Shown here piece by piece: positions 1,462 to 37,775 of a DNA stretch of 37,950 bases. Position numbers and translations under genes: made by a program. A model generated the notes under the pieces. It worked only from the letters and a program-made list of their open reading frames with translations. It was not told the origin of the DNA and did not search any database. How positions within the stretch are numbered: position 1 is the first letter of the stretch; every line of letters begins with the position of its first letter. Origin of the DNA: a virus; the IMG/VR virus record IMGVR_UViG_3300032004_000033, positions 1 through 37,950 of that record; one strand, 5' to 3'.

Positions 1462-1489
1462 AAAAAAAAGCCCCGCACTGTGGCGGGGC
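1462..1489 (-). terminator. Rho-independent terminator immediately upstream of the holin (tR'-like).
   Basis: Minus strand reads GCCCCGC-CACAGT-GCGGGGC followed by TTTTTTTT. Confidence 0.85.
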
Positions 1490-1520
1490 AGCGATGACGC
1501 AAGAGTCGTCGGGCTTGGGT

Positions 1521-1540
1521 GTCGGAATCCCGACTATTTC
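1521..1540 (-). promoter_or_regulatory. Late-strand element (LSE), copy E.
   Basis: Minus strand reads GAAATAGTCGGGATTCCGAC. A 5-bp stem GTCGG/CCGAC is preceded by AATA. The TAG inside it is the stop codon of ORF 1534-1797. Confidence 0.7.
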
Positions 1541-1807: not shown

Positions 1808-2068
1808 TCATGCTTTCGAGTGATAAGCCCACCAGTCACCAACGGCGACCATGGGCAGCTTTGAACGGGCCTGGCCGGTGGCCTGGACCCAAAACAACAC
1901 AAGGCGCTCGCCCTCCGTGTAGCGAGGTTCAGCGCCCTGTTTCCAACCCAGCAACGTGCTGCGCGGGACTGCGATGGCATCGGCCACCGACTGCGGTGAG
2001 TAGCCGGCACGCGAAAGCACGGTTATCACCGTGAACCAATCCACGCGCTGTTCGGCCAGGGCGAGCAT
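1808..2068 (-). CDS. 86-aa putative HTH DNA-binding protein in the Q-equivalent position (candidate late regulator).
   Basis: ATG at 2068, directly after the stop of the upstream gene. The segment SPQSVADAIAVPRSTLLGWKQG looks like a helix-turn-helix. Confidence 0.5.
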   Translation of the reverse strand: MLALAEQRVDWFTVITVLSRAGYSPQSVADAIAVPRSTLLGWKQGAEPRYTEGERLVLFWVQATGQARSKLPMVAVGDWWAYHSKA

Positions 2069-17416: not shown

Positions 17417-17431
17417 CCAGTGAAACTAGAA

Positions 17432-17450
17432 ATGGTGCCCGAAGCCGGAA
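17432..17450 (-). other. attP core candidate: the 3'-terminal fragment of a tRNA gene (acceptor 3' strand plus CCA; identity not determinable).
   Basis: Minus strand reads TTCCGGCTTCGGGCACCA, i.e. part of the T-arm, acceptor strand TTCGGGC, discriminator A and CCA. It lies next to int. Confidence 0.55.
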
Positions 17451-17550
17451 CCTAATTCGGCGCAAAACTCCCAATGCTCATTAGGCAAATACAAAGACAG
17501 GCCGAAACGATGTGCTAACCACTGTACTGTTTCTTCGCCGCTGGGCTCGA

Positions 17551-18411
17551 TCAGATCGCAGACAACACGAATGCCAGTAGCTGTTCATAGCGAACCCCTG
17601 GACCCTGCGCCGTCTTCTCGACGATTGAGTAGTCATCCGCATTCAGGCCTTGCGCGGCGAACGCCGAACGGATGTCAGCAACTGGGATGCCCACACCGAT
17701 TTTGCCGGTGGTCTTGCTGCGCGAAGCCTTGATCATGCCCTTGAGCTGCTTGGCTACAGAGCGCTCCGCTTCGGAAAGGTCGCGTGGTGCATCGGCCTGG
17801 GCCGGGTTGTCCAGCAGCACAGGCCCGCTACCCACGCCAAACAGCATGTCAGAGCGGTGATAGCTGGGGGCTACTCCCGATGAATACAGCCCGTAGCCGC
17901 TGGACTGGGACATCGCAAGCGCGGTGTTGGTCTTGCCCGAGGCAAGGTTGCGAATGAAGATGCCCACGTTTTTATCAACCGTGCCACCGCCGGTGACGGA
18001 TACATCAGCGATATCGACTGCGGTCCGTATCAGGATCTCGCCTGTGCCGGAGTGCACCGGGCGTGATAAGAAGCCGCCGGTTGACGCCAGTACATTGCTG
18101 CCGGCGTAGTTGATGCGGTCCTGGAATGAATAGATATGGTTTTGCCGATTAGCCCCGCGCAGCTCAACCACGGAATCAAACGCGCCATAGGTGCCAGCGT
18201 CCGTGACCTTATCCATGATGGTCTTGTCAGTGAAGGCGTGGGCGTCGGTGCCGCCATGCATTGAGCGCGACACAACCACACCATCGTTGAGGGAGTGACC
18301 GGTCACAGGGTTGTTGCCAACGAGCACGCGAGGGGCCGTGATGGGCTCATCGCCCCAGGCCGACACAGAGGCGGCAAGGGCGATGGCAAGGGTGAAAGCA
18401 ATCTTTTTCAC
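17551..18411 (-). CDS. Signal-peptide-bearing paralog of the tailspike head domain (secreted/periplasmic), the last gene before attP.
   Basis: GTG start. Sec signal MKKIAFTLAIALAASVSA/WG. The centre is homologous to the tailspike (VTDAGTYGAFD...NQNH.Y.FQ.R...RPVH.G.G). At DNA level, 18176-18207 vs 19409-19440 match at 29/32. Confidence 0.7.
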   Translation of the reverse strand: MKKIAFTLAIALAASVSAWGDEPITAPRVLVGNNPVTGHSLNDGVVVSRSMHGGTDAHAFTDKTIMDKVTDAGTYGAFDSVVELRGANRQNHIYSFQDRINYAGSNVLASTGGFLSRPVHSGTGEILIRTAVDIADVSVTGGGTVDKNVGIFIRNLASGKTNTALAMSQSSGYGLYSSGVAPSYHRSDMLFGVGSGPVLLDNPAQADAPRDLSEAERSVAKQLKGMIKASRSKTTGKIGVGIPVADIRSAFAAQGLNADDYSIVEKTAQGPGVRYEQLLAFVLSAI

Positions 18412-18456
18412 GACAGGTCCCGCGTTCGTTTGAGATTGCCCATGATACGTGGCGGG

Positions 18457-19740
18457 TTACTTGGCTTCCAGCGCTGCAAGGCGGGCCTCGAAGCCGGCAG
18501 CTATAAAGGCATACAGCCCGCTTTCACGGAAGCTGTAGCGGTCGCCTGCTGGAGCCTCTGGAGTTTCGTCCCACTTGTCGTAGCAGATGAAGCTGTAGGC
18601 GAATGGGTCCAGGCCGTGCGCCTCCATCACCTCAATGGCTCGCTGAACCGTCATGCCGATGTGTTCGCGTGCCGAATCTCCCTTTTCCGCCATTGCCGAG
18701 AGGAACTTGAAGGCCCCGATCTCTTTGGCCAGGGCGGACGCTGCTGCAATCTCGGCGGCGGACAGTTGGCGAACTTCCGTTTTCTCGCGAGCATCCGAGG
18801 TGCTGATAGTGGCGGTGCCGGCCCAGACCACCGACCACCGTTGCGCCGCGTCGCCCAAAGTCTGAGAGTTATCCGCCCCAGGCGCCACGGTGTAACCGTT
18901 GGACGCTGCCTTGATCTGCAAGCGGGTGGCAGAGTTGGCAATAAACTGGACGATCGTATCGCTCTCCGCGCCGATCTGGAGGTTCGTGGCGGTAGTTTCA
19001 ATAAAGCCGCGACGTGCGCCAACGGCAGTGCCAGCAAATTGCGCGGCATAAGAGGCAGTCGGAGATATTCCAAATCCTGCGCGCCCTTTGTTGTACATCG
19101 TGCCGCCGCCGGCAGCGTAATACGCAATGCCCGCAACCTGGTCGATGCTGAGGCCTACGTTTACCGTTGCGCCTGTTTGGTCGCGAATTCGAACGCCGGT
19201 TTGTTGGGTCATGGTACCGGCGCCGGTGATCGACATCGACCCAATATCAGCGCCATAGCTTTCATTGATGACGCCAGCACCTGCATGGACAGGGCGAGTA
19301 AGCAGGCCCGCAAACTGACCTAGGATGCCAGAGCCTTGAAAGATCATTCGATGCTGAAAGGCGTACATATGATTCTGGTTTGCTGACCCTTGAAGCCGCG
19401 TAGTTGTGTCAAACGCGCCATAAGTGCCCGCGTCGGTGACACCGCTAATTTCGGTTCGAGCCGCAAAGTCATGGAAATCTGTTGGCCCGGTAACATTTCG
19501 ACCTGAAATGTAACCGTCCCGAGTTGTTGGCGCTGAAATCTCTTCAGTACCCACGATGATTGAGGCAACTCGGACTCGCTTACTTGCATCAATGCTGACC
19601 TTTCCTGCCTTGGCGGCATTGAAGTCAGCGTCAGTGTCGAAGTTAATTCGATCAACAATGGTCAAGTTATCGACGAGGCTGCCCACGTCTTTATTTTTGC
19701 CATCAAGGTTTTGGATGTTGTCAGCGCGCAAAGTGCTCAT
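18457..19740 (-). CDS. Tailspike/tail fibre with a C-terminal intramolecular chaperone (peptidase S74-like) domain.
   Basis: ATGA coupling to the upstream gene. C-terminal ...TATISTSDAREKTEV...IGAFKF...REHIGMTVQ... is typical of auto-cleaving chaperone domains. Confidence 0.75.
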   Translation of the reverse strand: MSTLRADNIQNLDGKNKDVGSLVDNLTIVDRINFDTDADFNAAKAGKVSIDASKRVRVASIIVGTEEISAPTTRDGYISGRNVTGPTDFHDFAARTEISGVTDAGTYGAFDTTTRLQGSANQNHMYAFQHRMIFQGSGILGQFAGLLTRPVHAGAGVINESYGADIGSMSITGAGTMTQQTGVRIRDQTGATVNVGLSIDQVAGIAYYAAGGGTMYNKGRAGFGISPTASYAAQFAGTAVGARRGFIETTATNLQIGAESDTIVQFIANSATRLQIKAASNGYTVAPGADNSQTLGDAAQRWSVVWAGTATISTSDAREKTEVRQLSAAEIAAASALAKEIGAFKFLSAMAEKGDSAREHIGMTVQRAIEVMEAHGLDPFAYSFICYDKWDETPEAPAGDRYSFRESGLYAFIAAGFEARLAALEAK

Positions 19741-20459
19741 GGGTGCAGTTCTCCGTCAGCAATTGTATAGAAGGACCCAAGGCCAACAGTCACTGACTGC
19801 CCAACGGCGACGGTCATAGTTGGCCCAAAAGACCAGGCATTTTTGTTTGGCGGAATAACCACACTGTTTTGAATGGTCTGGTTATGCCAGGAAATTTCTG
19901 AGAAGGCCGAAGCCTGGACAGGATTGCTGCCGCTAATTTGGGATTGAAGGTAGGCGTCTGCGTTTTGCCTTGCGGCTGCTTCAATTGCGTCTTGATCCAG
20001 AACATATTGCTTATTTGCTGCATCGTTGTTTTCAACTGGATAGGCAAGATCGCGTATCCCATTGTTATTTGCCCTGTACCATCCAGCACCATCAATATCA
20101 AAAGAGCCTAGTGTCAAAGCCCTGGTGGTATATCGAAAGAGCTGCTTTAGCGCCTGCCAGATCCGGTCGAAGTCACGGTTAACGGTCGAGGAAAGGAAGT
20201 CGCCGTTTTCCTGGTAGTCCGTCAGCCGCTGGAACGGCACGTCCAATACCAAGTACAGGTCGCCAGTAGGCGCTACGGAAAAAATCACTGAGCTGGTGGG
20301 CTGCCCTATGCCAGTTTGGGTATACCCGGATGCTTGCAGAACGCCATCGAGGTAGACCTTGAGATCGCCGGCCTCGATCACCAGGAACGGCACGGTATAG
20401 ATAGTGGTGACGCCGTTGGCGGCATAGCGCTTTTCGGTTGGCCCTGGCTGGACAGACAT
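19737..20459 (-). CDS. Tail fibre/adaptor protein with a T7 gp17-like N-terminal particle-attachment domain.
   Basis: YAANGVTTIYTVPFLVIEAGDLKVYLDGVLQ...LTDYQENGDFLSSTVNRDFDRIW matches the T7 tail-fibre N-terminal pattern. Confidence 0.7.
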   Translation of the reverse strand: MSVQPGPTEKRYAANGVTTIYTVPFLVIEAGDLKVYLDGVLQASGYTQTGIGQPTSSVIFSVAPTGDLYLVLDVPFQRLTDYQENGDFLSSTVNRDFDRIWQALKQLFRYTTRALTLGSFDIDGAGWYRANNNGIRDLAYPVENNDAANKQYVLDQDAIEAAARQNADAYLQSQISGSNPVQASAFSEISWHNQTIQNSVVIPPNKNAWSFGPTMTVAVGQSVTVGLGSFYTIADGELHP

Positions 20460-20486
20460 GTGTAGACCCCTTGGTGGTGGCGGGCC

Positions 20487-22100
20487 CTAGTATTCAACCT
20501 GCACGTCGTGCACGCCCGCATCTGGACGCCAATCGTCCCGCCGGGCCTCTGTCGGTTTCCCGACTATTCGCCCAATGCGCACGGGGGTTTGGGCGATTGC
20601 GCCGGCGCCGGAGTCGATGAAGTCATCGTCCTGATCGGTTAGTGCTGGGTTGAAGTCGCGCATCTGGTCCCAGATCGTTCGAAGAACGTCGATGTGGGCC
20701 CACAGGAAGCGCGCCGACAATGGAGGCTCGAAGGCATCGAGGATGCGTTTCTGTTTGTTGGCACTGCTGTGCTCTTCTCCTACGCCGCAGCCTGTGCCCT
20801 TCAAGGCTTGTTTCAAGATGGCCGGGGCAAACCCGCCCGGGCCGTTGGTTTCGATGATCACTCGCGGGATCTGGTATCGGATGACCAACTCGCGGATCTG
20901 GTACACCTGGCCGCCGTTGATGCGATCCCTTTCGTCAAACTCGGCGATTTCCCCTGTCAGCCCTGCCGCAACGTGCCAATAGAGTTGCCCGCGAGCATCG
21001 GTCAGCAACAGCGAAAAGGCCGAGGCGTCCGACTTGATCTTGCCCAGGGAGCAGTCCCAGTAAGCGACGGCGCCGACGATCTGCGTTGAGCCCAGGTACA
21101 TGGCTGCCGCGTTGTTGGCGTAGCGCATGGTCGGCTGTACGTCATAGGGGATGATGCGCTCGGGGTTCAAGCGAACCTCCGTGACCGGCTTCGAGTGAAG
21201 CTGATACTGCGAATCCCATTCGTTGATGGTGCGGGTTTTCTTTCGCCGCTTCTCCAGCTCTTTCAGGTCGAAACGATCAACCCAGGCGATGCCGGCATAG
21301 CAATCAATCAGCGTGCCAGGCGGCGTAAAGAACGCTATCCCCGTCTTGGTGAGCTGATAGTCCTTCCCCTGGACAAGAGCTCTTGCGTGCTTGCCGATGC
21401 CAGAGAAAATGAACTCCGGCGGGAACGGAACGTCGTAGGCATTCAGCTTGGCTTCTTCAATCCGATGCTCTTTGGCAAACATGCGGATGGTCAGGCAGTC
21501 GGCGCCCAGCGCCTCCTGCTCGTCATAGAGGCTGTCATGCGTGTGCGGTGTCCCAACGAACAGCAGCCGCGCACCAGGCACCATGATGTGGACCTGCTCA
21601 CCGAGCCTGTACCGAAGCTTCTCCCGGGCCTCTGGCGTGGCAATGTTCTTCGGCACCTCGACGTCATCGTTTTGGCATTCATCCGCCCGCGAACTGGTGA
21701 TGTTCGACATGATGCCGGAGGCCTGCATAGATGGATTTCGCTCGTCCTCGTTCCCAGGAACCCACCAAAACGCAGTGTCACCCTTCATTTTCCTGTGAGC
21801 ATCCAGCGTCAATGGATGCTTCCTGAGGATGGCTTTGGTGTCGCGACTGGTCTTGTAGGCCGTGGGGTCGGTGTCGCCCTGGTGCAGAATCCGATAGGTC
21901 GGATCGAGGTAGAACCGCCATGCGTTGTACAGCGCCAGGATGGTCGACTTACCAAACCCACGGAAACAGCGAAGCACCGCATGATCTCCACGGTGCTCAA
22001 GCCAGTGACAGGCCCTGACATGAATGTCCGGGACTTCCCACTTCATGCGCTTTGCCCATATCAGGAAAAACGCCAAAAAAGAGATGTACTTAGTGGACAT
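20487..22100 (-). CDS. terL: Terminase large subunit.
   Basis: Walker A FRGFGKST. Size and position fit (T7 gp19-like order, after the small subunit). Confidence 0.85.
   Translation of the reverse strand: MSTKYISFLAFFLIWAKRMKWEVPDIHVRACHWLEHRGDHAVLRCFRGFGKSTILALYNAWRFYLDPTYRILHQGDTDPTAYKTSRDTKAILRKHPLTLDAHRKMKGDTAFWWVPGNEDERNPSMQASGIMSNITSSRADECQNDDVEVPKNIATPEAREKLRYRLGEQVHIMVPGARLLFVGTPHTHDSLYDEQEALGADCLTIRMFAKEHRIEEAKLNAYDVPFPPEFIFSGIGKHARALVQGKDYQLTKTGIAFFTPPGTLIDCYAGIAWVDRFDLKELEKRRKKTRTINEWDSQYQLHSKPVTEVRLNPERIIPYDVQPTMRYANNAAAMYLGSTQIVGAVAYWDCSLGKIKSDASAFSLLLTDARGQLYWHVAAGLTGEIAEFDERDRINGGQVYQIRELVIRYQIPRVIIETNGPGGFAPAILKQALKGTGCGVGEEHSSANKQKRILDAFEPPLSARFLWAHIDVLRTIWDQMRDFNPALTDQDDDFIDSGAGAIAQTPVRIGRIVGKPTEARRDDWRPDAGVHDVQVEY
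20551..20570 (-). promoter_or_regulatory. Late-strand element (LSE), copy D, inside the terL 3' coding region.
   Basis: Minus strand reads CGAATAGTCGGGAAACCGAC, translated as R-I-V-G-K-P-T. It lies 92 nt upstream of the tail-fibre start. Confidence 0.7.
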
Positions 22101-22422
22101 GCCCGCCCGCCTGTGCGCGCTCCAGCAATGCGGTGGCTTCGCGCTCGGCTTTGGCCTGAATAGAGTCTAAATCTTCCTCTGATGCGCCAGCCGGCAGCGT
22201 GCCGCCCTGGATATGCCCAGTGATGCTCATCACCTTGACCAACAGCGTCATGGTTGCGGCCGCATTCTTCTTGCACCAATAGCGGTCGCCGCGTTCCTGC
22301 TGGGTAAGGTCTGCCGGCACCTTCTCTGCTCCCGGCCAGTTGTGCGGGTCAACTTCGGTTATGACGACTTCGCCAAGGCGTTCGCTGAGCGCTTGTAGGC
22401 GGGTGATTTGGTCGTCTCTCAT
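22090..22422 (-). CDS. terS: Putative terminase small subunit (110 aa).
   Basis: ATGA overlap with the upstream gene. Its 3' end overlaps the terL start. The call is positional only. Confidence 0.4.
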   Translation of the reverse strand: MRDDQITRLQALSERLGEVVITEVDPHNWPGAEKVPADLTQQERGDRYWCKKNAAATMTLLVKVMSITGHIQGGTLPAGASEEDLDSIQAKAEREATALLERAQAGGHVH

Positions 22423-24962
22423 GGTCTTGCCCCCACTGCTGCGCCAAGGTTCGGTGCGCGATCCGGCGCCGTGTCGCCCGGCTCCCACCAATACGATTGA
22501 TTGAATTCCTTCTTGGCCCGCTTCTTCATGCGGCGCAGGTAGCCGGGGCTGAAATACTCTTGGAGCTGGTTAAAGATCAGGTGATCGGTTGCCGCCTTCG
22601 TATACCAGAGGTTCGCGCCGGGGGTGTGGGACTTGGCAAACGCAACAAGATTGCCGCCGACCTGACTGCCCTTCCCACTGGCAGCGTTACCCTTCAACTG
22701 CGACAGCGCATCGATATCGCTCGCGATAGGGCCCAACACCGACGCAACAAACGATCTCCCCCCTTGGGTTGTGCCAGAGAACAGGAAGTCGCCGTACAGG
22801 CCCATGGCCCCACCCTTGAGCATCGAGGCCAGGCCATAGCGCAGACCAGGCACACCAAGGGTGCCGTCATCGGTGATGTCCTTCGGATCGCGCCCGGCTG
22901 CAATCTCGCCCAACTGGATCGCCATGCCGCCCAGCACGGTGGTGCTGGCGACCAGGGCGCCGAGATACCCGGCCTTGCCCCAACCTTCCTGGGCCATGCC
23001 GCGCTTGACGTGGCGCAGCACCATGCCGATGGAGAAGCTTTTGAACTGCCAGAACGAGCGCAACAGCTCGCCCTTGACGGTCCCGCGCTCGACGCCGCCG
23101 TGCATCAGCGCCTTTTCCCTGGCGCCGGGCTCAATGATCGCCATGTTGGTTTCATCCAGCACGGTGCCCAGCAGCTTGGTGGCTGCCTGATCCTTGAGCC
23201 GCTGCGGGGTTGTCTTGAGTTGTTGCGCCAACGGAGTCAGATCGGCGTCGGGGATGCGGTAGATGCTGTTCGCGGTCAGCACGGTGTCGCCGGCGCCGCG
23301 CCAGTCCTCGGGCTGAGCCAGGCGCCATACAGACCAGTCCGTCTCGGTGACGCCTTGGCCGAGTAACCGCTTGCTGTCCGCCGGGTCCATGGCCGCGATG
23401 GTCGGGTGCCGTCGGGACATGTCGCCGATGGTGTCCATCATGGTCGCGCCGAAAGCCCGCTGAGTGCCGGCGGTCAGTGCGTTCATGCCAGAGGCCTGCA
23501 TGATCTTGCTCGCAGCGGTCTGGCTGAACTTCGATATCTTCCCGGAAATCTGTTCAGTGGTGCCCAGGCCATCGGCGCCCCAGCGGTTCAGGCTGCCAAT
23601 CAACTGATTCAGGCCCAGGCCTGCACGCTGCGCCATCCGCCGATCTGCTGCGCTGGCCGGGTTGAGCATGCGTATCTCGTTGGCGAACACCTTCATAACC
23701 GGCATGCCGTTCATGGACGCGGTAAGGCCCAGCGTCCCCTGATCGGTTACGGACGTCAGCACGGCGGAGCCCAGGCGGCTGGCGACGTTCAATGCGCGGT
23801 ACGTCTCGAAGCCGTTCGCAATGGCTGCCGATGCTGGTGGCTCGCGGGTGCCGGCCACCTCTTCAAACAGGTGCTCGATCTTTTTTCGCTGCTTGGCCGT
23901 TTTGTCGACCTTCTTCGGGTCGGCCATGTCCATAGCCTTCTGTCCGTCGTCCAGGAAGTAACGCATCTGGTTGGACGGGTTCGGGCCCAGGGCCTCAACA
24001 AGCGCGATGTCCCTCGATGCCCGGTCGATGTGGCCTATCAGCAGTTCCAGCAGGTTTCGCTCGCCATAGGCCTTCTGTGCGGCTATGAAGCTTTCCGCGT
24101 CCTTGTAGTGGATCTGCCGCGACTCGCTCCCACGGTTGGCGCGCATGCCGTTGCCAGCGGCCTGGCCGGGCTCCAGCTTGTTGACGCCACCAGTCGCCAG
24201 GGTCTGCCAAGCGTGATTCAAGAAGTCGGTCAGTTCGGCATCGTTCATCGGCGTCCCGTCTTCCTTGAGGTACTTGCCACGGTTGGCCCACTGGACATGG
24301 TCGCCAACCCACTTGGCCTGGTCCTTGGCGACCTTTACCTGCGAGTGATCGCGGGGCATTGACCAATCATCCAGCAGGCCGACATCGCCGCCGGCGCGGT
24401 TGAAGCGCTGGCGCAGTTGTTCGGCGGTGTCCTGAAACTGTTTGGCCGCTGCCTTCGCTGCGGGAATGCCTGAGTCCTGGCCGTGCAGCTCGCGCACCAG
24501 CGCCAAGTTGCCGGCTTCGTCCTGGAACAGGCCTAGAAACTTGCCTTTGGTTTGGTCGATGACTTCCAGCATGCGGCTGAGCGCGTCGTCGCGGATGGCG
24601 CGAGTGGCGGACTCGATGGACTGAATGCCGCTCTTGCCGTCACTGGAGAACGCCAGCAGCCGGTCGAGCCCTTCAAGTGGCTGCTCCGGAAACCGCTGCA
24701 TGTAACTGGCGATGCGATCGTGGGCCAGGATGGTCAGCGCCACGCGCTTTTTCTTGAGGTTGGCCTCTTCCACCAGATCCTTGGCGGACTTGGTGGCGGC
24801 CTCGTTGAGCCGGTCGGCGGCGGTCTTGGATTGCCAGGTGGGGTCGGTCTGCGCCAATTGCTTCATGTTGCGGCGCACGCGACTTTCGATGCCCTGGATC
24901 TCTGGTTGTGTGAGGGGGCGGCCAATGGCCTGGGTGACCGCCTGTATGCATTCGGGGCGCAT
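22419..24962 (-). CDS. Large internal virion/ejection protein (847 aa, gp16-position).
   Basis: AGGAG 8 nt upstream. The protein is large, helical and Ala/Gly-rich with hydrophobic segments near the C-terminus. Positionally analogous to the T7 internal core proteins. Confidence 0.55.
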   Translation of the reverse strand: MRPECIQAVTQAIGRPLTQPEIQGIESRVRRNMKQLAQTDPTWQSKTAADRLNEAATKSAKDLVEEANLKKKRVALTILAHDRIASYMQRFPEQPLEGLDRLLAFSSDGKSGIQSIESATRAIRDDALSRMLEVIDQTKGKFLGLFQDEAGNLALVRELHGQDSGIPAAKAAAKQFQDTAEQLRQRFNRAGGDVGLLDDWSMPRDHSQVKVAKDQAKWVGDHVQWANRGKYLKEDGTPMNDAELTDFLNHAWQTLATGGVNKLEPGQAAGNGMRANRGSESRQIHYKDAESFIAAQKAYGERNLLELLIGHIDRASRDIALVEALGPNPSNQMRYFLDDGQKAMDMADPKKVDKTAKQRKKIEHLFEEVAGTREPPASAAIANGFETYRALNVASRLGSAVLTSVTDQGTLGLTASMNGMPVMKVFANEIRMLNPASAADRRMAQRAGLGLNQLIGSLNRWGADGLGTTEQISGKISKFSQTAASKIMQASGMNALTAGTQRAFGATMMDTIGDMSRRHPTIAAMDPADSKRLLGQGVTETDWSVWRLAQPEDWRGAGDTVLTANSIYRIPDADLTPLAQQLKTTPQRLKDQAATKLLGTVLDETNMAIIEPGAREKALMHGGVERGTVKGELLRSFWQFKSFSIGMVLRHVKRGMAQEGWGKAGYLGALVASTTVLGGMAIQLGEIAAGRDPKDITDDGTLGVPGLRYGLASMLKGGAMGLYGDFLFSGTTQGGRSFVASVLGPIASDIDALSQLKGNAASGKGSQVGGNLVAFAKSHTPGANLWYTKAATDHLIFNQLQEYFSPGYLRRMKKRAKKEFNQSYWWEPGDTAPDRAPNLGAAVGARP

Positions 24963-25008
24963 GGGCTTGCTCCTGTTTGGATGGGAGCAAGCCTATGGGG
25001 CGGGAGTA

Positions 25009-25028
25009 GACGGTTTCCCGACTATTTA
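25009..25028 (-). promoter_or_regulatory. Late-strand element (LSE), copy C.
   Basis: Minus strand reads TAAATAGTCGGGAAACCGTC (one stem mismatch). The TAA is the stop of ORF 25026-26930. It lies 47 nt upstream of ATG 24962. Confidence 0.7.
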
Positions 25029-26930
25029 GAAGCCGCGTTGCAGGAAGCAAGCGGCGGCAGCGGCGAAGCCTCGGGATTCCTCTTGCGCCTTGGCGATATC
25101 GGCGTCGGCGCTGGCCAGCATTTCTCGGGCCGACACGGTGATCGGGTTGCCTTCTGCATCCATGGCGCCGGTGGACAAGCGCATGTCATCCATGCGGGAC
25201 AAGACTTCATCAGCGAGCTGGATCTCTGGGTCTGATGCAGGTTTACCCGATATTGATTCAGCTTCGGCCCCTTCTGATGCAGGTTTGGCGGGTTCTGATC
25301 CGCTCTTCGGGGCTTTTGATGCAGTAGCCGCGCTTGCCGCTTCCGGTTTTTCCACTTCTTTTGAGGTGCCTATATCCAGCGGCTTGGCCTGCAACGTAGG
25401 CTCGGCACGCTCGATATCGTCCAGGATGCGGCGGATTTCCTGCTGCGCCACCTGGGCCATGCTCAACCGGGTGTTGCCCTCGGCCACGCCAGCAGCAAGA
25501 GGCTTCTTCTCGAAGCCCTGCACGATGGTGTCAGCGCGCCGGGCGATTCGATCCTGGAAGCGTTGCGGGACTTCGCCGCGATCCAAGGCGTTCAGGTCGG
25601 CACGGGCCAGCTCGGCAGAACGGTTGCCGGTGAGGCTTTCGCCCAACGCGGCCTGGCGGTCGGTCAGGGCCTGGCGCTCAGTATCGATCGATTCGCGGGC
25701 CGAACGCTCGGCAGCCTTGCGGCTCTGGCCCTGCTGCTGGAACTCTTTTGCTCGAGCGCGGAACGTATCGTCCAGGCCTTCCAGGCTGCGGGCTACCGTG
25801 GACAGTTCGGCCTTGACGTCGCGAACATTGGGCAAAATCCCCGCGGCTTCCTGCTCCAGTTCAAGGCGCAACGTCGGCTCAAGGTCCTGGCGGGCGGTGA
25901 CCAGCGCCACGTCGCGGCTGGGTGCGATGACCGGGGATTCGTCAGCAGTGCGCAGGAACTCAGCAGAATGAATGCTCTCTGGAAGTCTCACAGGCTCGCC
26001 ACGGCTTAACTGGCTGATAGCCGTACGAATGGCGTCTTGATGCGCTACCGCTGAACGTGGATTGATTGGCGCGCCAGGGGCGGTATCGATGTCGGCATGC
26101 TGGAACGTGCGTTCGCTAAGCGCTGCGTCAACCTGCTTGGTGGTGGGCCGGCGCAGGCTTGCGCGACCGATCCCAAAGAATGCCGCGCCCAAGATGGCGT
26201 CCGTGGCTACGGCGGTTCCGTCCATGGCCTGATACTGCGCGGCCTGGGCGGCGTAGCCGTTGCTCTCAAGCAGCTTGGCGGTAGCGCCTCGCCCGGCCAT
26301 GCCCAAGCCAACGTTCGCTCCCACAGCGATTGCAGCGTCACCAAGCAGCGGTTTAACGAAACGGGCGGCAGGCAACACGGCGCCGACGCCCATGGTTGCG
26401 GCATCAATGGCGCCTTTGTAGGTCGCGGTTTCCTCGTCCAAGCCTTCGGCCATGCCAACTTGCTTGCTGGAGTAGCCAGCAGGCGCACCAGCAGCCACAG
26501 CCGCTCCCACAGGGCCGCCAAGTACGGTACCCACCACCGTACGCGGCAGAACGGCAGCAGCCTCGCCCAGGATCTGGCCGACAATCCCGACCTCAGAAGG
26601 ATCAGGGCGTAGGTCCATGACTTCCTTGGCCGTGCCCTGCCCCAGGGTTTCCTGGCTCGACCGCTCGGCGCTGGTCACGTCAGGCGATCCGCCAAACTTC
26701 GGCTCAGGCAGCAACGCACTGGCGGCCAGGTCCAGGCCACCCTGCCACAGCGAACTGAACCCGGATTCAATCGCGCCGCCAGCTTCGAGCCCACCGCGCA
26801 GCAGGTTGGGGCCCAACGTATCAAGGGCGCCCGTGAAGGCGCCCGGCTCGGGCTTTTCCTCTGTGCGTTCGAAGCGTTGATCCTGGCTTAGCGCCTCGTT
26901 CTCTTCGACCAATCCATCGAGCCAGCTCAT
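25026..26930 (-). CDS. Internal virion protein (634 aa).
   Basis: ATGA coupling. The N-terminal region is Gly/Ala-rich and hydrophobic, and the C-terminal half is a coiled coil. gp15-position. Confidence 0.5.
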   Translation of the reverse strand: MSWLDGLVEENEALSQDQRFERTEEKPEPGAFTGALDTLGPNLLRGGLEAGGAIESGFSSLWQGGLDLAASALLPEPKFGGSPDVTSAERSSQETLGQGTAKEVMDLRPDPSEVGIVGQILGEAAAVLPRTVVGTVLGGPVGAAVAAGAPAGYSSKQVGMAEGLDEETATYKGAIDAATMGVGAVLPAARFVKPLLGDAAIAVGANVGLGMAGRGATAKLLESNGYAAQAAQYQAMDGTAVATDAILGAAFFGIGRASLRRPTTKQVDAALSERTFQHADIDTAPGAPINPRSAVAHQDAIRTAISQLSRGEPVRLPESIHSAEFLRTADESPVIAPSRDVALVTARQDLEPTLRLELEQEAAGILPNVRDVKAELSTVARSLEGLDDTFRARAKEFQQQGQSRKAAERSARESIDTERQALTDRQAALGESLTGNRSAELARADLNALDRGEVPQRFQDRIARRADTIVQGFEKKPLAAGVAEGNTRLSMAQVAQQEIRRILDDIERAEPTLQAKPLDIGTSKEVEKPEAASAATASKAPKSGSEPAKPASEGAEAESISGKPASDPEIQLADEVLSRMDDMRLSTGAMDAEGNPITVSAREMLASADADIAKAQEESRGFAAAAACFLQRGF

Positions 26931-28945
26931 TTGACTTTCACCACCATAGGTTCTTTGGTCGTCGGGTCGATCTGCACCCGGCCTGCGTTCATCAGGTAAT
27001 AAGAGCCTTCACGGCCCGGCACGGGCGACAGCGGCATATCCTCAAGCTGGCCTATCGGGAACTTGGTGCGATCGGCCATGCCTTGCAGCTGCATGTCCAC
27101 GACCTTGTCAAAGTCATCATCGGCCATGCCATAGGGCTTGATGACCTTCGCCCCGCCGCGCTCGCTCACGCCGCCGGTGGCCATGTCGATGGCCGCCTGG
27201 GCGGTGTCGCTGTCCAGATCCTCACCCTCTCCGTAAACCACCCCTTTGGCTGCGGCTGTGCCTGCGTACAGGGACTTGAAGGCCAGGAACGCCTGTTCAC
27301 GCTGCGGCGTGCCCGGGGCCATTGACGTGCCAATGTGCTCTTCGAAGGCCTTGCGAAAGGTGTTGTCCTTTGGCAGTGGAACCGACTTGTCCTTCAACAC
27401 CTTCCCGCCGGCGAGCAGCATCTTGGGCACGTCGGTGCCGTCCTGCCCCTTGAGTCCGCGGAACTGAGCCATTCCCGCCAACACGGTGATGGGTTGGTCG
27501 GCGATCAGTGGCTTGATGGCTGCGGCGTAATCGGCACCAGATGGGGAAGAGGACGCGATAGCACCCAATAGCTGCAGCTTGGTGCCGTCATCTGCCTGGG
27601 CCATTACCGACGACAGCAACGCGACCTCTTCAGGCTTGAACGGGACTCGCGCAACCTCGGGGCCGTATGCTTTGCGCACGGAGTTCACCACGTCGAAGCG
27701 CTCGGCGATCTGCTCGCCCAGCTTGGCCTGGCCCTCTGGCGTGGTGATGCCAGTGACGTCCAGGGGCGCAACGTCCTGACCGGTGCGCATGGCGTTGAAG
27801 GCCAACGGGTTGTCGCGCATCAACTTGGTGTTGTTGTCGATGGCGGTTTGCAGGCGGGCGACATTGGCCTGCTCGGATACGCTGGCGCCGGACTTCGCCA
27901 TCTGCTGACGCTTCTGCTCCACGTATTGCTGTTGCACGGCCATGGGTTGGCGCAACAGGTTCTGCACCTCGACCATCTCCCCCATGCGGGTGTTGAACTC
28001 GCCAGCAACGGACGTGCCTGCGGTAAGCGCTTTCCAACGCTGCTGGTCTGCCGGTGTTGGCGGAACGCCCGTCGCGGCCTGGCGATCCATCTGTGTGAGG
28101 GCGCGCTCTGCCTTCGACTCGCGAATCTCGGCTTGGCGCTGCTGGTGTTCCTTCACCTGGAAGATTCGACCACTGACGGTGTTGAGCAGCTGGTTGCGCT
28201 TCTCCGGGTCCAGCTTCTTGGCGTAGAAACCATCCTCGGCGGTGAGGTCGTGCTCGAGCTTTTGCAGGCTACCAACGCTTTCGCGGGATTCGATGACGCG
28301 CTGGGTCGCGTGCGTGGTCCAGTTGTCGTCCTTGAACTCTTGCTTCTTGCTGGTCCAGGCCTCGCCGAAGGCCAGGCGCCCGGCCACGTCGATGTCTTCG
28401 GCATCCATGCGGGCGTTGATCTGATCGACGTTGGCGCCGGGCATGGCTGCGTCCTTGCCCAGGATGTCCATGCGGGACGTGAGGTCGCTTTGCGCGGCCA
28501 GGATACGGCCCTTGCCGGATGCCTCGCGGACCTTGTCCAGGCCACCCAGCTGCATGCGCTTGAGCGAGTTGCCTATTTCACCCTGCTGCGCGGGGTCGAG
28601 GCCCGGGGTTTCCAGTGGTTCAAGCTTCGAAACCGCTGCGGTGTAGGCTTCCTCTGACTTTTCGTAGGGCAGTTGGCCGGCGCGCATCTGCTCATCAAGG
28701 TCATTGGCAATGGTCTTGATCTGCGATTCCCGGTCGATAAGCGCATTGCTGGCCTTCACCCGGGACAAGGCTTGATCTTCCTTGCTGACCTGATCGAGAT
28801 AGTTGAAGGCGGCGTTCTGCACCGTGTTCGCGGTCTGTTGGGCGGCGCGTACCTGGGCGCTGCTATCGGAAGCAATAACGCGGTTCTGTGGGGTTTCTTG
28901 CTGGACGTTGACCTGCCCAAAGTTGCCCAGTGGTATCTGTGCCAT
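26927..28945 (-). CDS. Internal virion protein (672 aa).
   Basis: Translationally coupled on both sides. The protein is long and helical. Call is positional. Confidence 0.5.
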   Translation of the reverse strand: MAQIPLGNFGQVNVQQETPQNRVIASDSSAQVRAAQQTANTVQNAAFNYLDQVSKEDQALSRVKASNALIDRESQIKTIANDLDEQMRAGQLPYEKSEEAYTAAVSKLEPLETPGLDPAQQGEIGNSLKRMQLGGLDKVREASGKGRILAAQSDLTSRMDILGKDAAMPGANVDQINARMDAEDIDVAGRLAFGEAWTSKKQEFKDDNWTTHATQRVIESRESVGSLQKLEHDLTAEDGFYAKKLDPEKRNQLLNTVSGRIFQVKEHQQRQAEIRESKAERALTQMDRQAATGVPPTPADQQRWKALTAGTSVAGEFNTRMGEMVEVQNLLRQPMAVQQQYVEQKRQQMAKSGASVSEQANVARLQTAIDNNTKLMRDNPLAFNAMRTGQDVAPLDVTGITTPEGQAKLGEQIAERFDVVNSVRKAYGPEVARVPFKPEEVALLSSVMAQADDGTKLQLLGAIASSSPSGADYAAAIKPLIADQPITVLAGMAQFRGLKGQDGTDVPKMLLAGGKVLKDKSVPLPKDNTFRKAFEEHIGTSMAPGTPQREQAFLAFKSLYAGTAAAKGVVYGEGEDLDSDTAQAAIDMATGGVSERGGAKVIKPYGMADDDFDKVVDMQLQGMADRTKFPIGQLEDMPLSPVPGREGSYYLMNAGRVQIDPTTKEPMVVKVK

Positions 28946-29481
28946 CAGGTGTTACCCCCAACACTTGAAACTGTTCCGTTACGACCTGCGGCCGACGCCT
29001 TCCAGGCTGAGCCAGCCTGCGCCCCAGCGGACAGCACCGTGCCGATCGATTGTGAGTTGGCGGCCGACCGCGCCTGCCGACCTGACAGCGCGTAGTTGTC
29101 AGCGTCGTTGTAGAGCCTCGCCTGCTGGTTGCGACCGTTGAAGATGGTCAACGCCGCGTCTTCCTCAGCATTGCCGATGATCTCTTCGTTGATGTTGATC
29201 GCGGTCCCTGCCCCCACCTCGACGCCTGAGGCCGCAAGGGCTGCGTTCGCCTCGCTCGCCTGGTTACGGGCAAGGCGGCGGATGCGGTCAGCCTGGACCA
29301 CCGCCGCGCTGGCAGCTGTGTCCGCGTCCGCTGATGCCTGCTCGCCCTGGGCGTCGGCATTGAGCTGCGCCTGCTTGCCTGCCTGCTGAGTCGAATAGAC
29401 CGAATAGACCGTAGCAGCAGCAACAGCGGCATATGCCGCGTACCCTGCGTATGCCGCGTACCCTGCTGCACCAACTGCCAT
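28945..29481 (-). CDS. Internal virion protein A-like (178 aa) with an Ala/Tyr-rich hydrophobic N-terminus.
   Basis: MAVGAAGYAAYAGYAAYAAVAAATVYSVY... gp13/14-position. Confidence 0.45.
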   Translation of the reverse strand: MAVGAAGYAAYAGYAAYAAVAAATVYSVYSTQQAGKQAQLNADAQGEQASADADTAASAAVVQADRIRRLARNQASEANAALAASGVEVGAGTAININEEIIGNAEEDAALTIFNGRNQQARLYNDADNYALSGRQARSAANSQSIGTVLSAGAQAGSAWKASAAGRNGTVSSVGGNT

Positions 29482-29483
29482 GA

Positions 29484-29927
29484 TTAGATCTCCATCATCA
29501 AGAGGGGCCCGATGTTGCGCAGGCCCTGGGATTCATAAAGACGGGTCGTTCCTTCGACGTTGACGCCGGTTCCGATACCCATGTGGATTTGCTTGGCACC
29601 CTTGATCTTTGCCCACTCTTGGAAGGTTTTAATCAGGCGGATGGCAATCACCCCATTACGCTTGGAGGGCTCGACGAACAGCGAGTAGTCATAGGCGATC
29701 AGGTCATTGCTGAACCATTGATCAGTTACGCCGCCAGCCATGCCGCCAACCACTTCGCCGCCAACCTCGGCAACGAAAACAACCCCCGCGCCGTTGATGA
29801 GGTCGTGGAGGAAGTTGGCCGATTTCTCTGGGCAGTAGTTCATCGAGGCGTAGTTGCTGGTCGCATGAAGGATGTTTCCCAGCTCGATCAGCCTGGGTAC
29901 GTCGGAATGTTTGGCGGGCCGAATCAT
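29484..29927 (-). CDS. GNAT-family N-acetyltransferase embedded in the virion module.
   Basis: VVFVAEVGGEVVGGMAG...YDYSLFVEPSKRNGVIAIRLIKTFQEWAKIKGAKQIHMG is a GNAT core. Hand counts of 100-nt samples gave about 51% GC at 29581-29680 against about 67% at 30301-30400. Confidence 0.75.
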   Translation of the reverse strand: MIRPAKHSDVPRLIELGNILHATSNYASMNYCPEKSANFLHDLINGAGVVFVAEVGGEVVGGMAGGVTDQWFSNDLIAYDYSLFVEPSKRNGVIAIRLIKTFQEWAKIKGAKQIHMGIGTGVNVEGTTRLYESQGLRNIGPLLMMEI

Positions 29928-29936
29928 GGGTGCACC

Positions 29937-32087
29937 TCAATCGTTGAACGTGGCTTTTTTGATGACGCTCAGAAGCTGGAAGGGCAAAGGCTGATCCTGC
30001 GTGATGGTGATCGAGGCTTGGCCGCGATCCCACCCAAGGTTCTCCATGCGGTGCACGCCGGTGAACAGCTCGGGTGGCTGGTCCAGGGTGCCGGCGCCGG
30101 TAGCGCGAAAGGCAATGATCTGGCCGTTTACCTTGCAGCCAGTGGTCTCCAGGAAGCGCAGGGATATCTCCCCAATCCGCATGCTGTTGCCCTGCACGCT
30201 GCCGGTGCTGCCCTGCACTTCTGGCGTCAATGTTTTGATTTTGGTAATGAAGTTGAGGCCGATCTGCACGGCGAACGCGTTGCGGGGGATGGTGACCTGC
30301 CCGCTGGTGACCACCTGCTGCTGCATGACGATGCCGTCGGCGACGATGTCAACGGTCTTGCCTTCCAGGTGGGCAAGGCCACCCCACACCGACGCGCCTG
30401 GGCCGCTGACGGCAGATACGCCGCTATCAACCCTGATGCCGCCGGTGAAGCGCTCGATGTAGCGCACGTTCTGCCCGTTGACGGTACGACGGACAACGCA
30501 CCACACCTGATCGCCGTCTGCGATGGGGATCGATGCGCAGGACTCAAAGGCGCCGTCCGTGGTCTGACGGGCCCACCCGATAACGTCCTGGTCACGGTCA
30601 ACGGTCATGGTTGCCATGACGCCATCAGCCCGCACCAGGTACAGGATCGACTCAGGCTCTTGCTGGTAGGCCATATCCACAACGCCGGATTTGGTGGCGT
30701 GCTCGGAAAGGATCGACATGTCAGGCGAACCGAACGTATCTGAGTCGTACTTGTAGGCCATGGCCCTGAGCTTGCGGTTGGCTCGCTGGACAAAATACAG
30801 CTCGTTGCCAATCCGGACCGGACGCACGCGGTTGCAGCCGTAGACCGAAGGGTTCTTGGCGCGGATGTTTGTCGGGGTGATGGCCTTCTCAACGCCGCCA
30901 CTGACGGTGAACTCACCGCCGTAGGTCAGCGGGATCAGGGCGTTGATCTGGCCTATGTGAAGGATGGGGTTGATCTGGTCCGAGGACAGGTTGTAGGACA
31001 GCGCATCATCGTCCTTGGTCCCCAGCTCGAAGTTCAGGTACTCGCTTGTGCGCGATTCCCAAATGGTTTGCGGATAGTTCACAGAGCCGCCCAGGGCAAG
31101 GCGCTGCTCATACAGCGTGCCGGCGCCGGGGTAGCCGTCGATATCGTTCCAGACAGATGCCTCAAGCGACCAAGCGTTGGCCGGCGATGCGACGGCGGAC
31201 GTCGGCGCCGAGCGGATGATTCCCGAAACCACGGTGGTGCTGGTGTAGACGCTGATCTCCAGCAGGCCACCGTTGATCTTGACGAACTTGCCCAAGTCGT
31301 TGGATCGCCAGCCAGCGGCCCCCAGGGTCATGGTCACAACGCCGCCCACGGGCGTGGCAGCGCTCAGAGTGTTAGTGGTCTGAGGCGATCCCTTGAGCGA
31401 CCACGTAGGACGTACAGCCGCGGTGAATGCGTTAAGAATTTCCACGGTTGCCACGGTCGCACTGGTCACGGCGGTAATCTTTGCAACGCCACCACCTGAC
31501 CAGATTTCGCGATCAACATCCGCTGCCAGGAATGCAGACGCGGCGGAAGTGGCCGTCCGGCCGGTGCCCACCGTTGTATCGCTGAACGTGATTGAGGTGG
31601 TGAAGTCGATGCCCTTCTCATCGAATGGCTTTGTAACGAACGGCGCCGGGGCAAGGCTCCACTCCGTATCCGCGAGCCGGCGCAGGCGGTACACCGGAAC
31701 CGAGGTGTTGAAGATGAACATGGTGTCCGCACCCTGCACATAGTCCACCCGATCAAGCGTGGTATGGCTGTAGGGGCTGACCAGCTCAACGCCGGTGTAG
31801 GTGCCGTCCGGGTAATAAATCCGCACGTAGAAGTCGCCGAACTCGCAGATGTACGCCTGCTGGGTGTTGAACACGTAGGGGATCAACCGGCACTTCTTAT
31901 CGGCGAACTTGGCAGCGGCCACGAACAGGGTGCCGTCGCGGCGGTTGGCACCACCATGGATGACTGGCCAGGCGTTCTCGATGATCTCGGCGCCGTTCTG
32001 GTAGCGGGCCAGGTCAACGCGGCCAAGCATCCGTGGCGAAACCTCACCGGCGGTGAAGTTGGTTTGCACCAGCGTCAGGCGAGCCAT
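29937..32087 (-). CDS. Tail tubular protein B/nozzle-like (T7 gp12-position).
   Basis: 716 aa. The N-terminal TNFTAGEVSPRMLGRVDLARYQNGAEIIEN pattern is typical of podovirus nozzle proteins. It follows the gp11-like gene. Confidence 0.55.
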   Translation of the reverse strand: MARLTLVQTNFTAGEVSPRMLGRVDLARYQNGAEIIENAWPVIHGGANRRDGTLFVAAAKFADKKCRLIPYVFNTQQAYICEFGDFYVRIYYPDGTYTGVELVSPYSHTTLDRVDYVQGADTMFIFNTSVPVYRLRRLADTEWSLAPAPFVTKPFDEKGIDFTTSITFSDTTVGTGRTATSAASAFLAADVDREIWSGGGVAKITAVTSATVATVEILNAFTAAVRPTWSLKGSPQTTNTLSAATPVGGVVTMTLGAAGWRSNDLGKFVKINGGLLEISVYTSTTVVSGIIRSAPTSAVASPANAWSLEASVWNDIDGYPGAGTLYEQRLALGGSVNYPQTIWESRTSEYLNFELGTKDDDALSYNLSSDQINPILHIGQINALIPLTYGGEFTVSGGVEKAITPTNIRAKNPSVYGCNRVRPVRIGNELYFVQRANRKLRAMAYKYDSDTFGSPDMSILSEHATKSGVVDMAYQQEPESILYLVRADGVMATMTVDRDQDVIGWARQTTDGAFESCASIPIADGDQVWCVVRRTVNGQNVRYIERFTGGIRVDSGVSAVSGPGASVWGGLAHLEGKTVDIVADGIVMQQQVVTSGQVTIPRNAFAVQIGLNFITKIKTLTPEVQGSTGSVQGNSMRIGEISLRFLETTGCKVNGQIIAFRATGAGTLDQPPELFTGVHRMENLGWDRGQASITITQDQPLPFQLLSVIKKATFND

Positions 32088-32674
32088 TACCAGTAACTCC
32101 CGAATCGCGCGGAATACAGACGCTCATCGCCCAATGCTTGCGGTGGATCTTCCTGGCCATCGACAGCGCGAGCCCGACGCAGTGAGGTCTCCAGCTTCTG
32201 TTCCATGGTCTGCTGCATGGATGCTGATTGGGTAATTGGGTAAGCCAGCGCGGCAGCCATAGAGACCGTCATGAGCTGGACCAGGTTGGAGTCCCATGTG
32301 CTTTCCACCTCGTTACGGAAGACGTAGCGCAGTTCAAGCACTGTGGTGTTGGCCTGAATGGTTCGGCCTTCCACCAGATAATCGATCTGTTGGCCGCTCG
32401 AACCCACCTCAAGCACCCTCATGAAATCGGCAGGCAGCTCGAAGGACTGCTCATAACCGAAGGCCGGCGCAGCTGCATCAGGCGCCAGAACGATCCGCTT
32501 GATGCAGCAGTTCCAAGGATGCTGACGGATCAAATCATCGCGCACCGTGGGGTACAGGTTCGCGCACAGCTTGGCCCGGTCCAGGTTCAACTGGTCGTTG
32601 AAGTCGTTGATGGTCTGCGCGCCCAGCATGAGCAGCGCGTTGGAACAGATCGAAACACCGGTGGCCATAGTCAT
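32087..32674 (-). CDS. Tail tubular protein A/head-tail adaptor-like (T7 gp11-position).
   Basis: GGAGG upstream. ICSNALLMLGAQTINDFND...LYPTVRDDLIRQHPWNCC resembles the gp11 N-terminal pattern. An alternative ATG is at 32668. Confidence 0.55.
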   Translation of the reverse strand: MTMATGVSICSNALLMLGAQTINDFNDQLNLDRAKLCANLYPTVRDDLIRQHPWNCCIKRIVLAPDAAAPAFGYEQSFELPADFMRVLEVGSSGQQIDYLVEGRTIQANTTVLELRYVFRNEVESTWDSNLVQLMTVSMAAALAYPITQSASMQQTMEQKLETSLRRARAVDGQEDPPQALGDERLYSARFGSYW

Positions 32675-32687
32675 CCTCAACCTCCAG

Positions 32688-32716: not shown

Positions 32717-32746
32717 AAGTTATTGCCATCCGCTGGCCACCACGAA

Positions 32747-34179: not shown

Positions 34180-34346
34180 TTGATGCACTCCAATGCAGAT
34201 ATGGGATTGCCTGCCGGTTGTCCGCATCGCGGGCCGGGATTCCTGGCGTGCATCGGCTTTGCTGCGCCTGGGGCGTTCCGGTTGTCTGCATGCCATCGCA
34301 GGCCGGCCCATTGCTGGGATGCCTGCGATGTTTGTGCATGGGGGGT

Positions 34347-34366
34347 GTCGGTTTCCCGACTATTTG
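34347..34366 (-). promoter_or_regulatory. Late-strand element (LSE), copy B.
   Basis: Minus strand reads CAAATAGTCGGGAAACCGAC. It lies 11 nt after the scaffold stop and 168 nt upstream of the capsid ATG. Confidence 0.7.
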
Positions 34367-37699: not shown

Positions 37700-37756
37700 T
37701 GTGCTGGCCTCGGGTTGGTTGTTGATCAACGAGGGCCAGCATCAAGTGGGATGGCT

Positions 37757-37775
37757 GTCGGGTTCCCGACTATTT
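37757..37775 (-). promoter_or_regulatory. Late-strand element (LSE), copy A.
   Basis: Minus strand reads AAATAGTCGGGAACCCGAC. The TAG is the Rz stop codon. It lies 58 nt upstream of ATG 37699. Confidence 0.7.

Follow-up and report, generated by a model that had tools for sequence, protein, structure and literature searches.

In phage P1, 11 late promoters each combine a −10 element with a conserved 9-base-pair (bp) inverted repeat that is bound by Lpa (PMC10695390). We analysed a stretch of viral DNA of 37,950 nucleotides (nt) (IMG/VR record IMGVR_UViG_3300032004_000033, positions 1 to 37,950; hereafter the window), in which a short inverted repeat, AATA-GTCGG-N4-CCGAC, occurs five times on the minus (late) strand (copies A to E, Table 1). 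We think it probable, at roughly two chances in three, that the five copies are the activator-binding half of five sigma-70 late promoters that have no −35 element. Like the Lpa promoters, these promoters would be scattered over the genome, with an inverted repeat in place of the −35 element and one phage activator, for which the candidate here is HTH86, an XRE-like helix-turn-helix (HTH) protein of 86 amino acids (aa). On these shared features, the P1 Lpa system appears to be the closest functional analogue. The P1 repeat is centred nearer to the −10 element (at about −22), and Lpa acts with the host protein SspA. In the window, by contrast, the repeat is of the 5-4-5 type, would be centred near −32 and has another sequence, and the candidate activator is an XRE-like protein.

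Two further systems share this layout. Mu C and P2 Ogr each serve a few late promoters (lysis, head, tail) that lack a −35 element and carry a dyad-symmetric site upstream of, or overlapping, the −35 position, and in both cases a single small early or middle phage protein is responsible. Mu C is an HTH protein of the Mor/C type with its site at about −30 to −55, and P2 Ogr is a zinc-finger protein with its site at about −55. The window resembles them in having late promoters without −35, a dyad-symmetric upstream site and a small candidate activator, but the sequences and positions of the sites are different, and HTH86 stays below every curated cut-off of Pfam. λ CII, at PRE, PI and PaQ, binds as a tetramer to direct repeats, TTGC-N6-TTGC, that flank the −35 of a weak promoter. 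Similarly, GTCGG and CCGAC flank four central bases that would take the −35 position given a spacer of 17-18 bp. Unlike the CII sites at lysogeny promoters, however, the repeats here are inverted and the targets are late genes, and the phage has a separate CII-like gene. Most likely, the window holds a known kind of phage control that is run by a new regulator and a new family of sites.

The repeated element is real and functional. Its 10-mer CCCGACTATT, which reads AATAGTCGGG on the minus strand, has exactly five copies in the window, all on the plus strand (starts 1529, 20559, 25017, 34355 and 37765). When up to one mismatch is allowed, there are 6 matches against 0.87 expected, a number that none of 100 dinucleotide-preserving shuffles reached. 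The full pattern AATAGTCGG-N4-CCGAC is exact in four of the five copies (A, B, D and E) and has one mismatch in copy C, where the right arm is CCGTC. The plus strand of the window has no independent copy of the full pattern, its sole match being copy C read in reverse. An earlier reading of the letters alone, which we call the original prediction, had reported five co-oriented copies on the late strand and none on the early strand, and these counts and shuffles bear it out. The copy sequences and loops that it listed are correct, including the deviation of copy C. Its coordinates hold to within 1 nt; copy C runs from 25027 to 25008, not from 25028 to 25009, and the 20-mer of copy A ends at 37756. 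It was also right that the conserved TAG or TAA doubles as the stop codon of the upstream gene in three copies, where the stop overlaps AATAG (E, TAG 1536-1534; A, TAG 37772-37770; C, TAA 25028-25026).

Aligning the five copies shows that the element is bipartite, with a second block that had escaped notice. All five copies share A(+32), T(+36) and G(+38), numbered from the first A of AATAG, while the spacer around these bases varies. The block, nAnnnT followed by nG, begins exactly 13 nt past the inverted repeat in every copy. Offsets 0 and 31 are the only ones at which all five copies fit this pattern, with a chance of about 2e-10 per offset. In the opened non-template strand, sigma-70 regions 2 and 1.2 specifically read A−11 and T−7 of the −10 element and G−5 of the discriminator. 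The module would therefore be made of an A/T-rich tetranucleotide, the 5-4-5 inverted repeat (AATA-GTCGG-N4-CCGAC), a 13-bp spacer, the weak −10 hexamer nAnnnT and nG. Since the predicted start lies about 7 nt past the hexamer, the centre of the inverted repeat falls about 32 nt upstream of it, and the repeat spans about −38 to −26. Upstream of AATA, nothing is conserved among 147 distinct instances from viral contigs, which argues against a −35 element. A search of the 20-kb late region (17300-37200) for sigma-70 consensus promoters gave 0, compared with 4.7 in shuffles. A late promoter or activator site had been among the roles first proposed, and the evidence favours it, but the anatomy given for it, with AATAGT as −10 and the hairpin as initially transcribed RNA, is unsupported, because the repeat falls upstream of the predicted start. 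Copy C had been thought a poor fit to an activator role. The predicted start at 24983 would leave a leader of 21 nt that contains the ribosome-binding site, and this objection would fall away.

The bipartite module is conserved well beyond the window. When viral contigs were scanned with the pattern, more than 118 stretches came up, and many of these carry two or three copies facing the same way. Among the 147 distinct instances, A(+32) is kept in 95%, T(+36) in 93% and G(+38) in 71%. In a curated set of 35 diverse copies, including those of the isolated Yersinia phage YeP5, the T of the downstream hexamer is present in 35/35 and the A in 34/35. For an unbiased set of relatives, 80 loci were picked by their capsid protein (62-96% identity) and not by the motif, and the DNA upstream of the capsid gene was read. 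The module is at the scaffold/capsid junction throughout, down to 62% capsid identity. Some of these relatives carry variants, such as AAAGGTCGG, GCCGG-N4-CCGGC with both arms changed, and more distant forms; the 13-nt spacing and nAnnnT are retained in the variants, including those with GCCGG/CCGGC arms. Over all loci, the junction counts are 102 for scaffold/capsid, 40 for p634/p847, 22 for terL/fibre and 36 for HTH86 or p87/holin. The lysis/p152 junction has at least 29 instances, and 29 further instances lie upstream of p152 with no assignable upstream gene. In 38 genomes with long flanks, 135 copies are on the late strand versus 2 on the opposite strand. A scan of related podophage genomes had been proposed with the original prediction, and it places the element at the same five junctions in dozens of Pseudomonas viral contigs. 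A scan of a genome collection gave mostly chance single matches (15 specified bases should match about 1,000 times in 596 Gb), and only Pseudomonas records had several copies per record.

The position of terminators in relatives points to promoters. Ahead of the capsid gene of several distant relatives, the preceding gene closes with a strong intrinsic terminator, and the element comes only a few bases later. A capsid gene behind a terminator needs its own promoter, and the module is the sole conserved non-coding feature between the terminator and the capsid gene in those relatives. YeP5 has the same arrangement: upstream of its capsid gene, GCTGGCTTTTTCA is followed by TTTGGTCGGGAAACCGAA, 13 nt and TAGCCT. 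In total, YeP5 has four copies (17980, 21374, 21489 and 33047) with the hexamers CACACT, TAGCCT, TAATTT and GACCAT at the same 13-nt spacing. Two of its copies stand in tandem upstream of the capsid gene. Because YeP5 has both the module and a homologue of HTH86, the system spans host genera.

A conserved inverted repeat may act as DNA or as an RNA stem-loop, and a boxB- or put-like hairpin that recruits an antiterminator had been proposed for it. In such a system, the GTCGG-N4-CCGAC stem-loop in the late RNA would recruit an antiterminator or modify RNA polymerase directly. The likeness to λ nut boxB and HK022 put consists of a short stem-loop in a lambdoid genome, with a 5-bp stem, a GAAA loop in three of the window copies and, at copy E, a terminator 31 nt downstream. 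Over the 35 diverse copies, 92.6% of the stem cells are paired, and a compensatory change is confined to one of the five pairs (U-A to C-G, in 4 sequences). The departures from pairing, however, comprise 13 non-standard cells versus 2 G-U, and the mismatched arms are inherited stably: most relatives have CCGTC at junction C, GTCAG turns up in several lineages, and the right arms of YeP5 are CCGAA in three of four copies and CCGAT in the fourth. The stem sequence is nearly invariant instead of freely covarying. The loops (GAAA, GAAC, GATT, GAAT, GATC) are not consistently GNRA; loop bases 3-4 vary freely, whereas loop bases 1-2 (GA) and the left arm are almost fixed. Within 100 nt of the window copies there is no boxA-like match, and at gathering thresholds Rfam has no match anywhere in the window, including the leader of the capsid gene. 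A boxB/put hairpin would also leave the exact 13-nt spacing to nAnnnT-nG unexplained. The window copies lie in the late operon, and in distant relatives and YeP5 a terminator precedes the element, whereas copy E is the only window copy with a terminator after it. Such conservation is typical of double-stranded DNA that is read by sequence and whose second half-site is degenerate, and not of an RNA stem maintained by pairing. We regard a boxB/put-type RNA as very doubtful.

If the repeat is a DNA site, HTH86 is probably the best candidate for the late activator that binds it, judged by position and co-variation only. Its gene is at the end of the early rightward operon, after RusA and the nin genes and before the lysis genes, which is the 'Q slot' of λ. 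Homologues are present in 91 of the fetched loci, and one lies upstream of the first element in 38/38 long capsid-anchored loci. In many cases the stop codon of the gene touches this element or overlaps it, for example in TGAAATAGTCGG or AAATAGTCGG. YeP4, YeP5 and YeP6 have homologues as well; the YeP5 copy (17540-17776) has 44.6% identity. The predicted recognition helix co-varies with the site. Helices with (R/K)ST go with the half-site GTCGG. In three relatives, the helix has RQT and the site GCCGG (L173), PPTT and AAATCCCCTTTTGGGTA (L175), or PQK and GTTCAGGAAATCTAACG (L180), and the changed site is found behind the HTH gene as well as ahead of the capsid gene, each time followed by nAnnnT at a fixed distance. 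In two others, L160 and L168, a perfect palindrome that is longer and of another type (CTGCCGGAATCCCGGCAG or TCGCCGGGATTCCGGCGA) follows the HTH86 homologue (at 5196 and 5457), and the capsid promoter retains AAATAGTCGGGAACCCGAC, so that one genome holds two site types. As a negative control, phage YA3, whose virion module is shared at 61% identity, has an annotated Q gene in the HTH86 slot, where no similarity to HTH86 is detectable, and it has no elements. Among annotated Pseudomonas phages, YA3 and MPK9 are the closest (61% identity for the 847-aa protein); both lack the element and have Q instead. The 87-aa open reading frame (ORF) between HTH86 and copy E was also considered as the regulator; it is poorly conserved, being found in 29 loci versus 91 for HTH86.

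HTH86 reaches the curated cut-off of no Pfam family, and searches of Pfam, NCBIfam and PDB sequences gave only sub-threshold matches to generic HTH proteins. Its AlphaFold2 model (mean predicted local distance difference test score 87.7) is an XRE-type helix bundle, and the nearest solved structures are small dimeric regulators, with C.BclI, C.EcoT38IS, C.AhdI and C.Esp1396I at the top. These are C proteins of restriction-modification systems, dimers of about 80 aa with the XRE fold; they recognise short palindromes beside weak promoters, which they activate through contact with RNA polymerase (PMC2275141). C proteins autoregulate one operon through two adjacent operators, whereas here five single sites would serve virion and lysis genes. 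The C-box, GACT...AGTC, differs from the window site in sequence, and HTH86 has no match to a C-protein profile or to any family at the sequence level. The HTH86 family is large, with 987 clusters at 50% identity for E ≤0.001 and 260 for E ≤1e-10, and all named homologues retrieved are labelled hypothetical. The 134-aa ORF that encloses HTH86 (1808-2212, minus strand) overlaps a 76-aa ORF (2071-2301, minus strand) in another frame. Relatives vary at the start of HTH86, some with an N-terminal extension of about 40 aa (117-128 aa in all) and others with the short 86-aa form.

In the activator model, HTH86 would be produced from the early rightward operon and accumulate. A dimer would then occupy the repeat, substituting for the missing −35 contact, and recruit the host sigma-70 RNA polymerase, which would initiate about 7 nt past the hexamer. 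In this way, E would fire the lysis genes, A the portal and scaffold genes, B the genes from capsid through the internal virion proteins, C the genes of the 847-aa protein and terminase, and D the tail fibres. At E, a strong intrinsic terminator is located between the predicted start and the holin gene. Among relatives, a terminator lies 12-15 nt past the hexamer in 23 of 25 distinct holin-upstream copies, and the stems differ (GCCCCGC, AGCCCAGC, CCCCGC) through compensatory changes. This terminator may act as a leaky attenuator and also keep early read-through out of the lysis genes. Another possibility is that polymerase initiated at E resists the terminator, as in λ Q antitermination. A protein bound to the repeat would then join the initiating RNA polymerase and confer terminator resistance, and the two terminators, before the holin gene and after the capsid operon, would let through only element-started transcripts. 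The location of the HTH gene, with an annotated Q in the same slot of YA3, fits such a scheme. So does the order of element E, a short transcribed stretch, a strong terminator and the lysis genes, which is that of pR'-tR', and the terminator at 32716-32696 is followed by 7.7 kb of virion genes that lack an element. However, HTH86 matches neither a Q family nor any other Pfam family, and BLASTP against the YA3 Q protein gave no alignment. In contrast to λ Q, there is no strong constitutive promoter with a −35 upstream and no consensus promoter at any copy, there are five sites instead of one, and the four copies A to D have no terminator just downstream. Neither does the terminator that precedes the element in distant relatives agree with it, and leaky termination, as at T7 T-phi, accounts for both terminators without a new activity. 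We therefore consider promoter-loaded antitermination improbable. The terminator at 32716-32696 (minus strand; ACCGGGGC...GCCCCGGT and a T run) is located after the capsid and 174-aa genes and before the tubular-protein genes, and its position resembles that of T-phi in T7.

Several points weigh against activator-dependent promoters of this anatomy. The −10 hexamers are poor in all five copies, and the start sites in Table 1 are predictions. The repeat is asymmetric, with a right arm less conserved than the left arm and the GA of the loop; a symmetric dimer would not usually have such a site. The fold matches that link HTH86 to the C proteins are weak (E 0.03-0.3, with the best at about 0.03; template modelling score 0.5-0.6). 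A plain activator model leaves unexplained why the strong terminator begins 12 nt past the −10 of promoter E. The pattern nAnnnTnG also occurs at offset 0 in 5/5 window copies, as AATAGTcG. Finally, RNA hairpins in which the −10/discriminator pairs with the Shine-Dalgarno sequence occur at junctions A, B and C and at the HTH86/portal junction of distant relatives. In relatives, these hairpins are conserved with wobble and compensatory changes and are thus an RNA feature. Since they include the 3' half of the −10, transcripts that cover the promoter must exist. The promoter model would take these for read-through RNAs, and, if the predicted starts are right, the hairpins form only in such transcripts; a start further upstream would yield them as well. 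The hairpins over the −10 are the main reason to keep an upstream start alive.

One upstream start would use AATAGT as the true −10, as first proposed, so that transcription begins inside the repeat; the downstream nAnnnT would act as a sigma-dependent pause element or belong to the leader RNA. On this view, the primary transcript would contain the whole of the long downstream hairpins. On the other hand, the A or T of this hexamer is lost in YeP5 (TTTAGT, TTTGGT) and in the GCCGG-type relatives (AGTAGC, TTTTGC, TCTTGC), while the downstream hexamer keeps both almost without exception. There is no −35, TG extension or other conserved sequence upstream of AATAGT, and the repeat would lie at −8 to +6, the position of a repressor site. 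This makes AATAGT very unlikely as the true −10, and the conserved −10 is the one 13 nt past the repeat. An RNA processing or stabilising site of the T7 RNase III type, which would cut a long late transcript into module mRNAs, had also been suggested. The copies are at module boundaries with conserved RNA hairpins just downstream, as such a role would have it, but nothing specific speaks for it. RNase III requires roughly two helical turns, and the stems, of 5 bp and about 10 bp, are too short. Processing would also leave the invariant A, T and G at fixed spacing unexplained, and where the element follows a terminator in relatives there is no upstream transcript left to cut. Of all explanations we give processing the least credence.

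The hairpins may also belong to a fuller version of the activator model, in which the XRE-like protein replaces Q and also takes the polymerase past the lysis terminator about 5-8 nt after the start, and the −10/discriminator doubles as an anti-Shine-Dalgarno arm. We hold this combination to be unlikely. If the hairpin idea is true, each late unit would have its first gene translated from transcripts of the unit's own promoter and from no others, coupling translation to local initiation.

Table 1. Positions of the repeated elements, predicted promoters, RNA features and genes in the window.
Feature	Position	Strand	Remarks
Element A, AATA + GTCGG-GAAC-CCGAC	37757..37774	-	proposed activator site at about −43 to −26; encloses TAG of spanin-like ORF upstream
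Promoter A, −10 GATGCT + discriminator G	37736..37743	-	predicted start ~37731
RNA hairpin A	37702..37741	-	5' arm, last 4 nt of −10 and discriminator; 3' arm with GAGG ribosome-binding site
First gene of unit A (142-aa form of p152 ORF)	ATG 37699	-
Element B, AATAGTCGG-GAAA-CCGAC	34347..34364	-	scaffold/capsid junction
Promoter B, −10 AAACAT + CG	34326..34333	-	predicted start ~34321
RNA hairpin B (first hairpin of leader)	34330-34294	-	5' arm overlaps −10
Structured conserved leader, ~142 nt before capsid	34180..34321	-	predicted multi-helix
Element C, AATAGTCGG-GAAA-CCGTC	25009..25026	-	right arm imperfect; p634/p847 junction; TAA of upstream gene overlaps
Promoter C, −10 TAGGCT + TG	24988..24995	-	predicted start ~24983; 847-aa gene ATG 24962
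RNA hairpin C, GGCTTGCTCC...GGAGCAAGCC	24964..24993	-	−10/discriminator pairs with ribosome-binding site
Element D, AATAGTCGG-GAAA-CCGAC	20551..20568	-	within last 28 codons of large terminase gene; upstream of tail-fibre genes
Promoter D, −10 GACGAT + TG	20530..20537	-	predicted start ~20525; tail-fibre ATG 20459
Terminator that, along with an integrase gene, closes late region	17385-17367
CI-like repressor	5127-5780	+	profile search
Cro-like gene	5013-4774	-	profile search
CII-like gene	4771-4466	-	profile search
Replication genes	4500-3051	-	profile search
RusA	3310-2615	-	profile search; several small ORFs after
HTH86, 86-aa XRE-like HTH	1808..2068 (2068-1808)	-	starts MLALAEQRVDWF...; PHROG 16553 match
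Element E, AATAGTCGG-GATT-CCGAC	1521..1538	-	upstream of lysis cassette; encloses TAG of 87-aa ORF upstream
Promoter E, −10 GACTCT + TG	1500..1507	-	predicted start ~1495
Intrinsic terminator GCCCCGC-CACAGT-GCGGGGC + T8	1462..1489 (stem 1489-1470)	-	between predicted E start and holin ATG 1443
Holin gene	1443-1165	-	after element E and terminator; lysozyme gene next

Profile searches of the window ORFs identify a lambdoid temperate phage with a virion module like those of T7 and epsilon15. Past the circle junction described below, the order is element A, portal, scaffold, element B with capsid, tubular proteins, internal virion proteins, element C with the 847-aa protein, small and large terminase, and element D with tail fibres. 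In these searches, no window ORF tested matched an RNA polymerase family. The gene map first inferred, with a T7-type virion order, a lysis cassette after E and no RNA polymerase gene, is thus borne out. Megablast of the 18-kb late region against isolated phages found no match. The HTH86 homologues derive from the Pseudomonas chlororaphis, fluorescens and syringae groups, and the window most likely comes from a temperate Pseudomonas phage.

Such a system would give a testable model of a late switch without a phage RNA polymerase or Q, in a large unannotated group of Pseudomonas podophages and in YeP4-6. It would also assign a probable function to an uncharacterised family of small HTH proteins, and the promoter motif could guide the annotation of late operons in these prophages. 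The pairs of regulator and site (GTCGG, GCCGG, TCCCC..GGGTA, GTTCAG..CTAACG) might serve as parts of orthogonal switches. The terminator at the lysis promoter and the hairpins between −10 and ribosome-binding site are unusual details of design.

Other promoter classes were tried and rejected. For sigma-54 (GG-N10-GC), the position matrix has no conserved GG at the needed offset. For sigma-28 (TAAA-N15-GCCGATAA), some distant relatives have CCGATA, but the window copies do not fit. A GGAAC −35 of the extracytoplasmic-function type would have to lie in the loop, which is variable. Searching the literature for the 9-mer brought up chance matches to primers, one of them in a P. aeruginosa phage paper on the XRE regulator LfsT, whose motif, NAAC-N5-8-GTTN, differs.

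An exact boxA consensus, CGCTCTTTA, is present at 6155-6163 on the plus strand in the early leftward operon, a count not above chance. The true start of the capsid gene is the ATG at 34179 (MSFQITEAF...) and not 34311. The leader before it is highly conserved in relatives and contains a repeated GACAACCGG motif, and one of its predicted helices holds the Shine-Dalgarno sequence of the capsid gene. The first 127 bases of the window (1-127) recur exactly at its end (37824-37950). The window is therefore a circular assembly, and the true genome is about 37.8 kb long. The spanin-like ORF spans the circle junction and terminates within element A.

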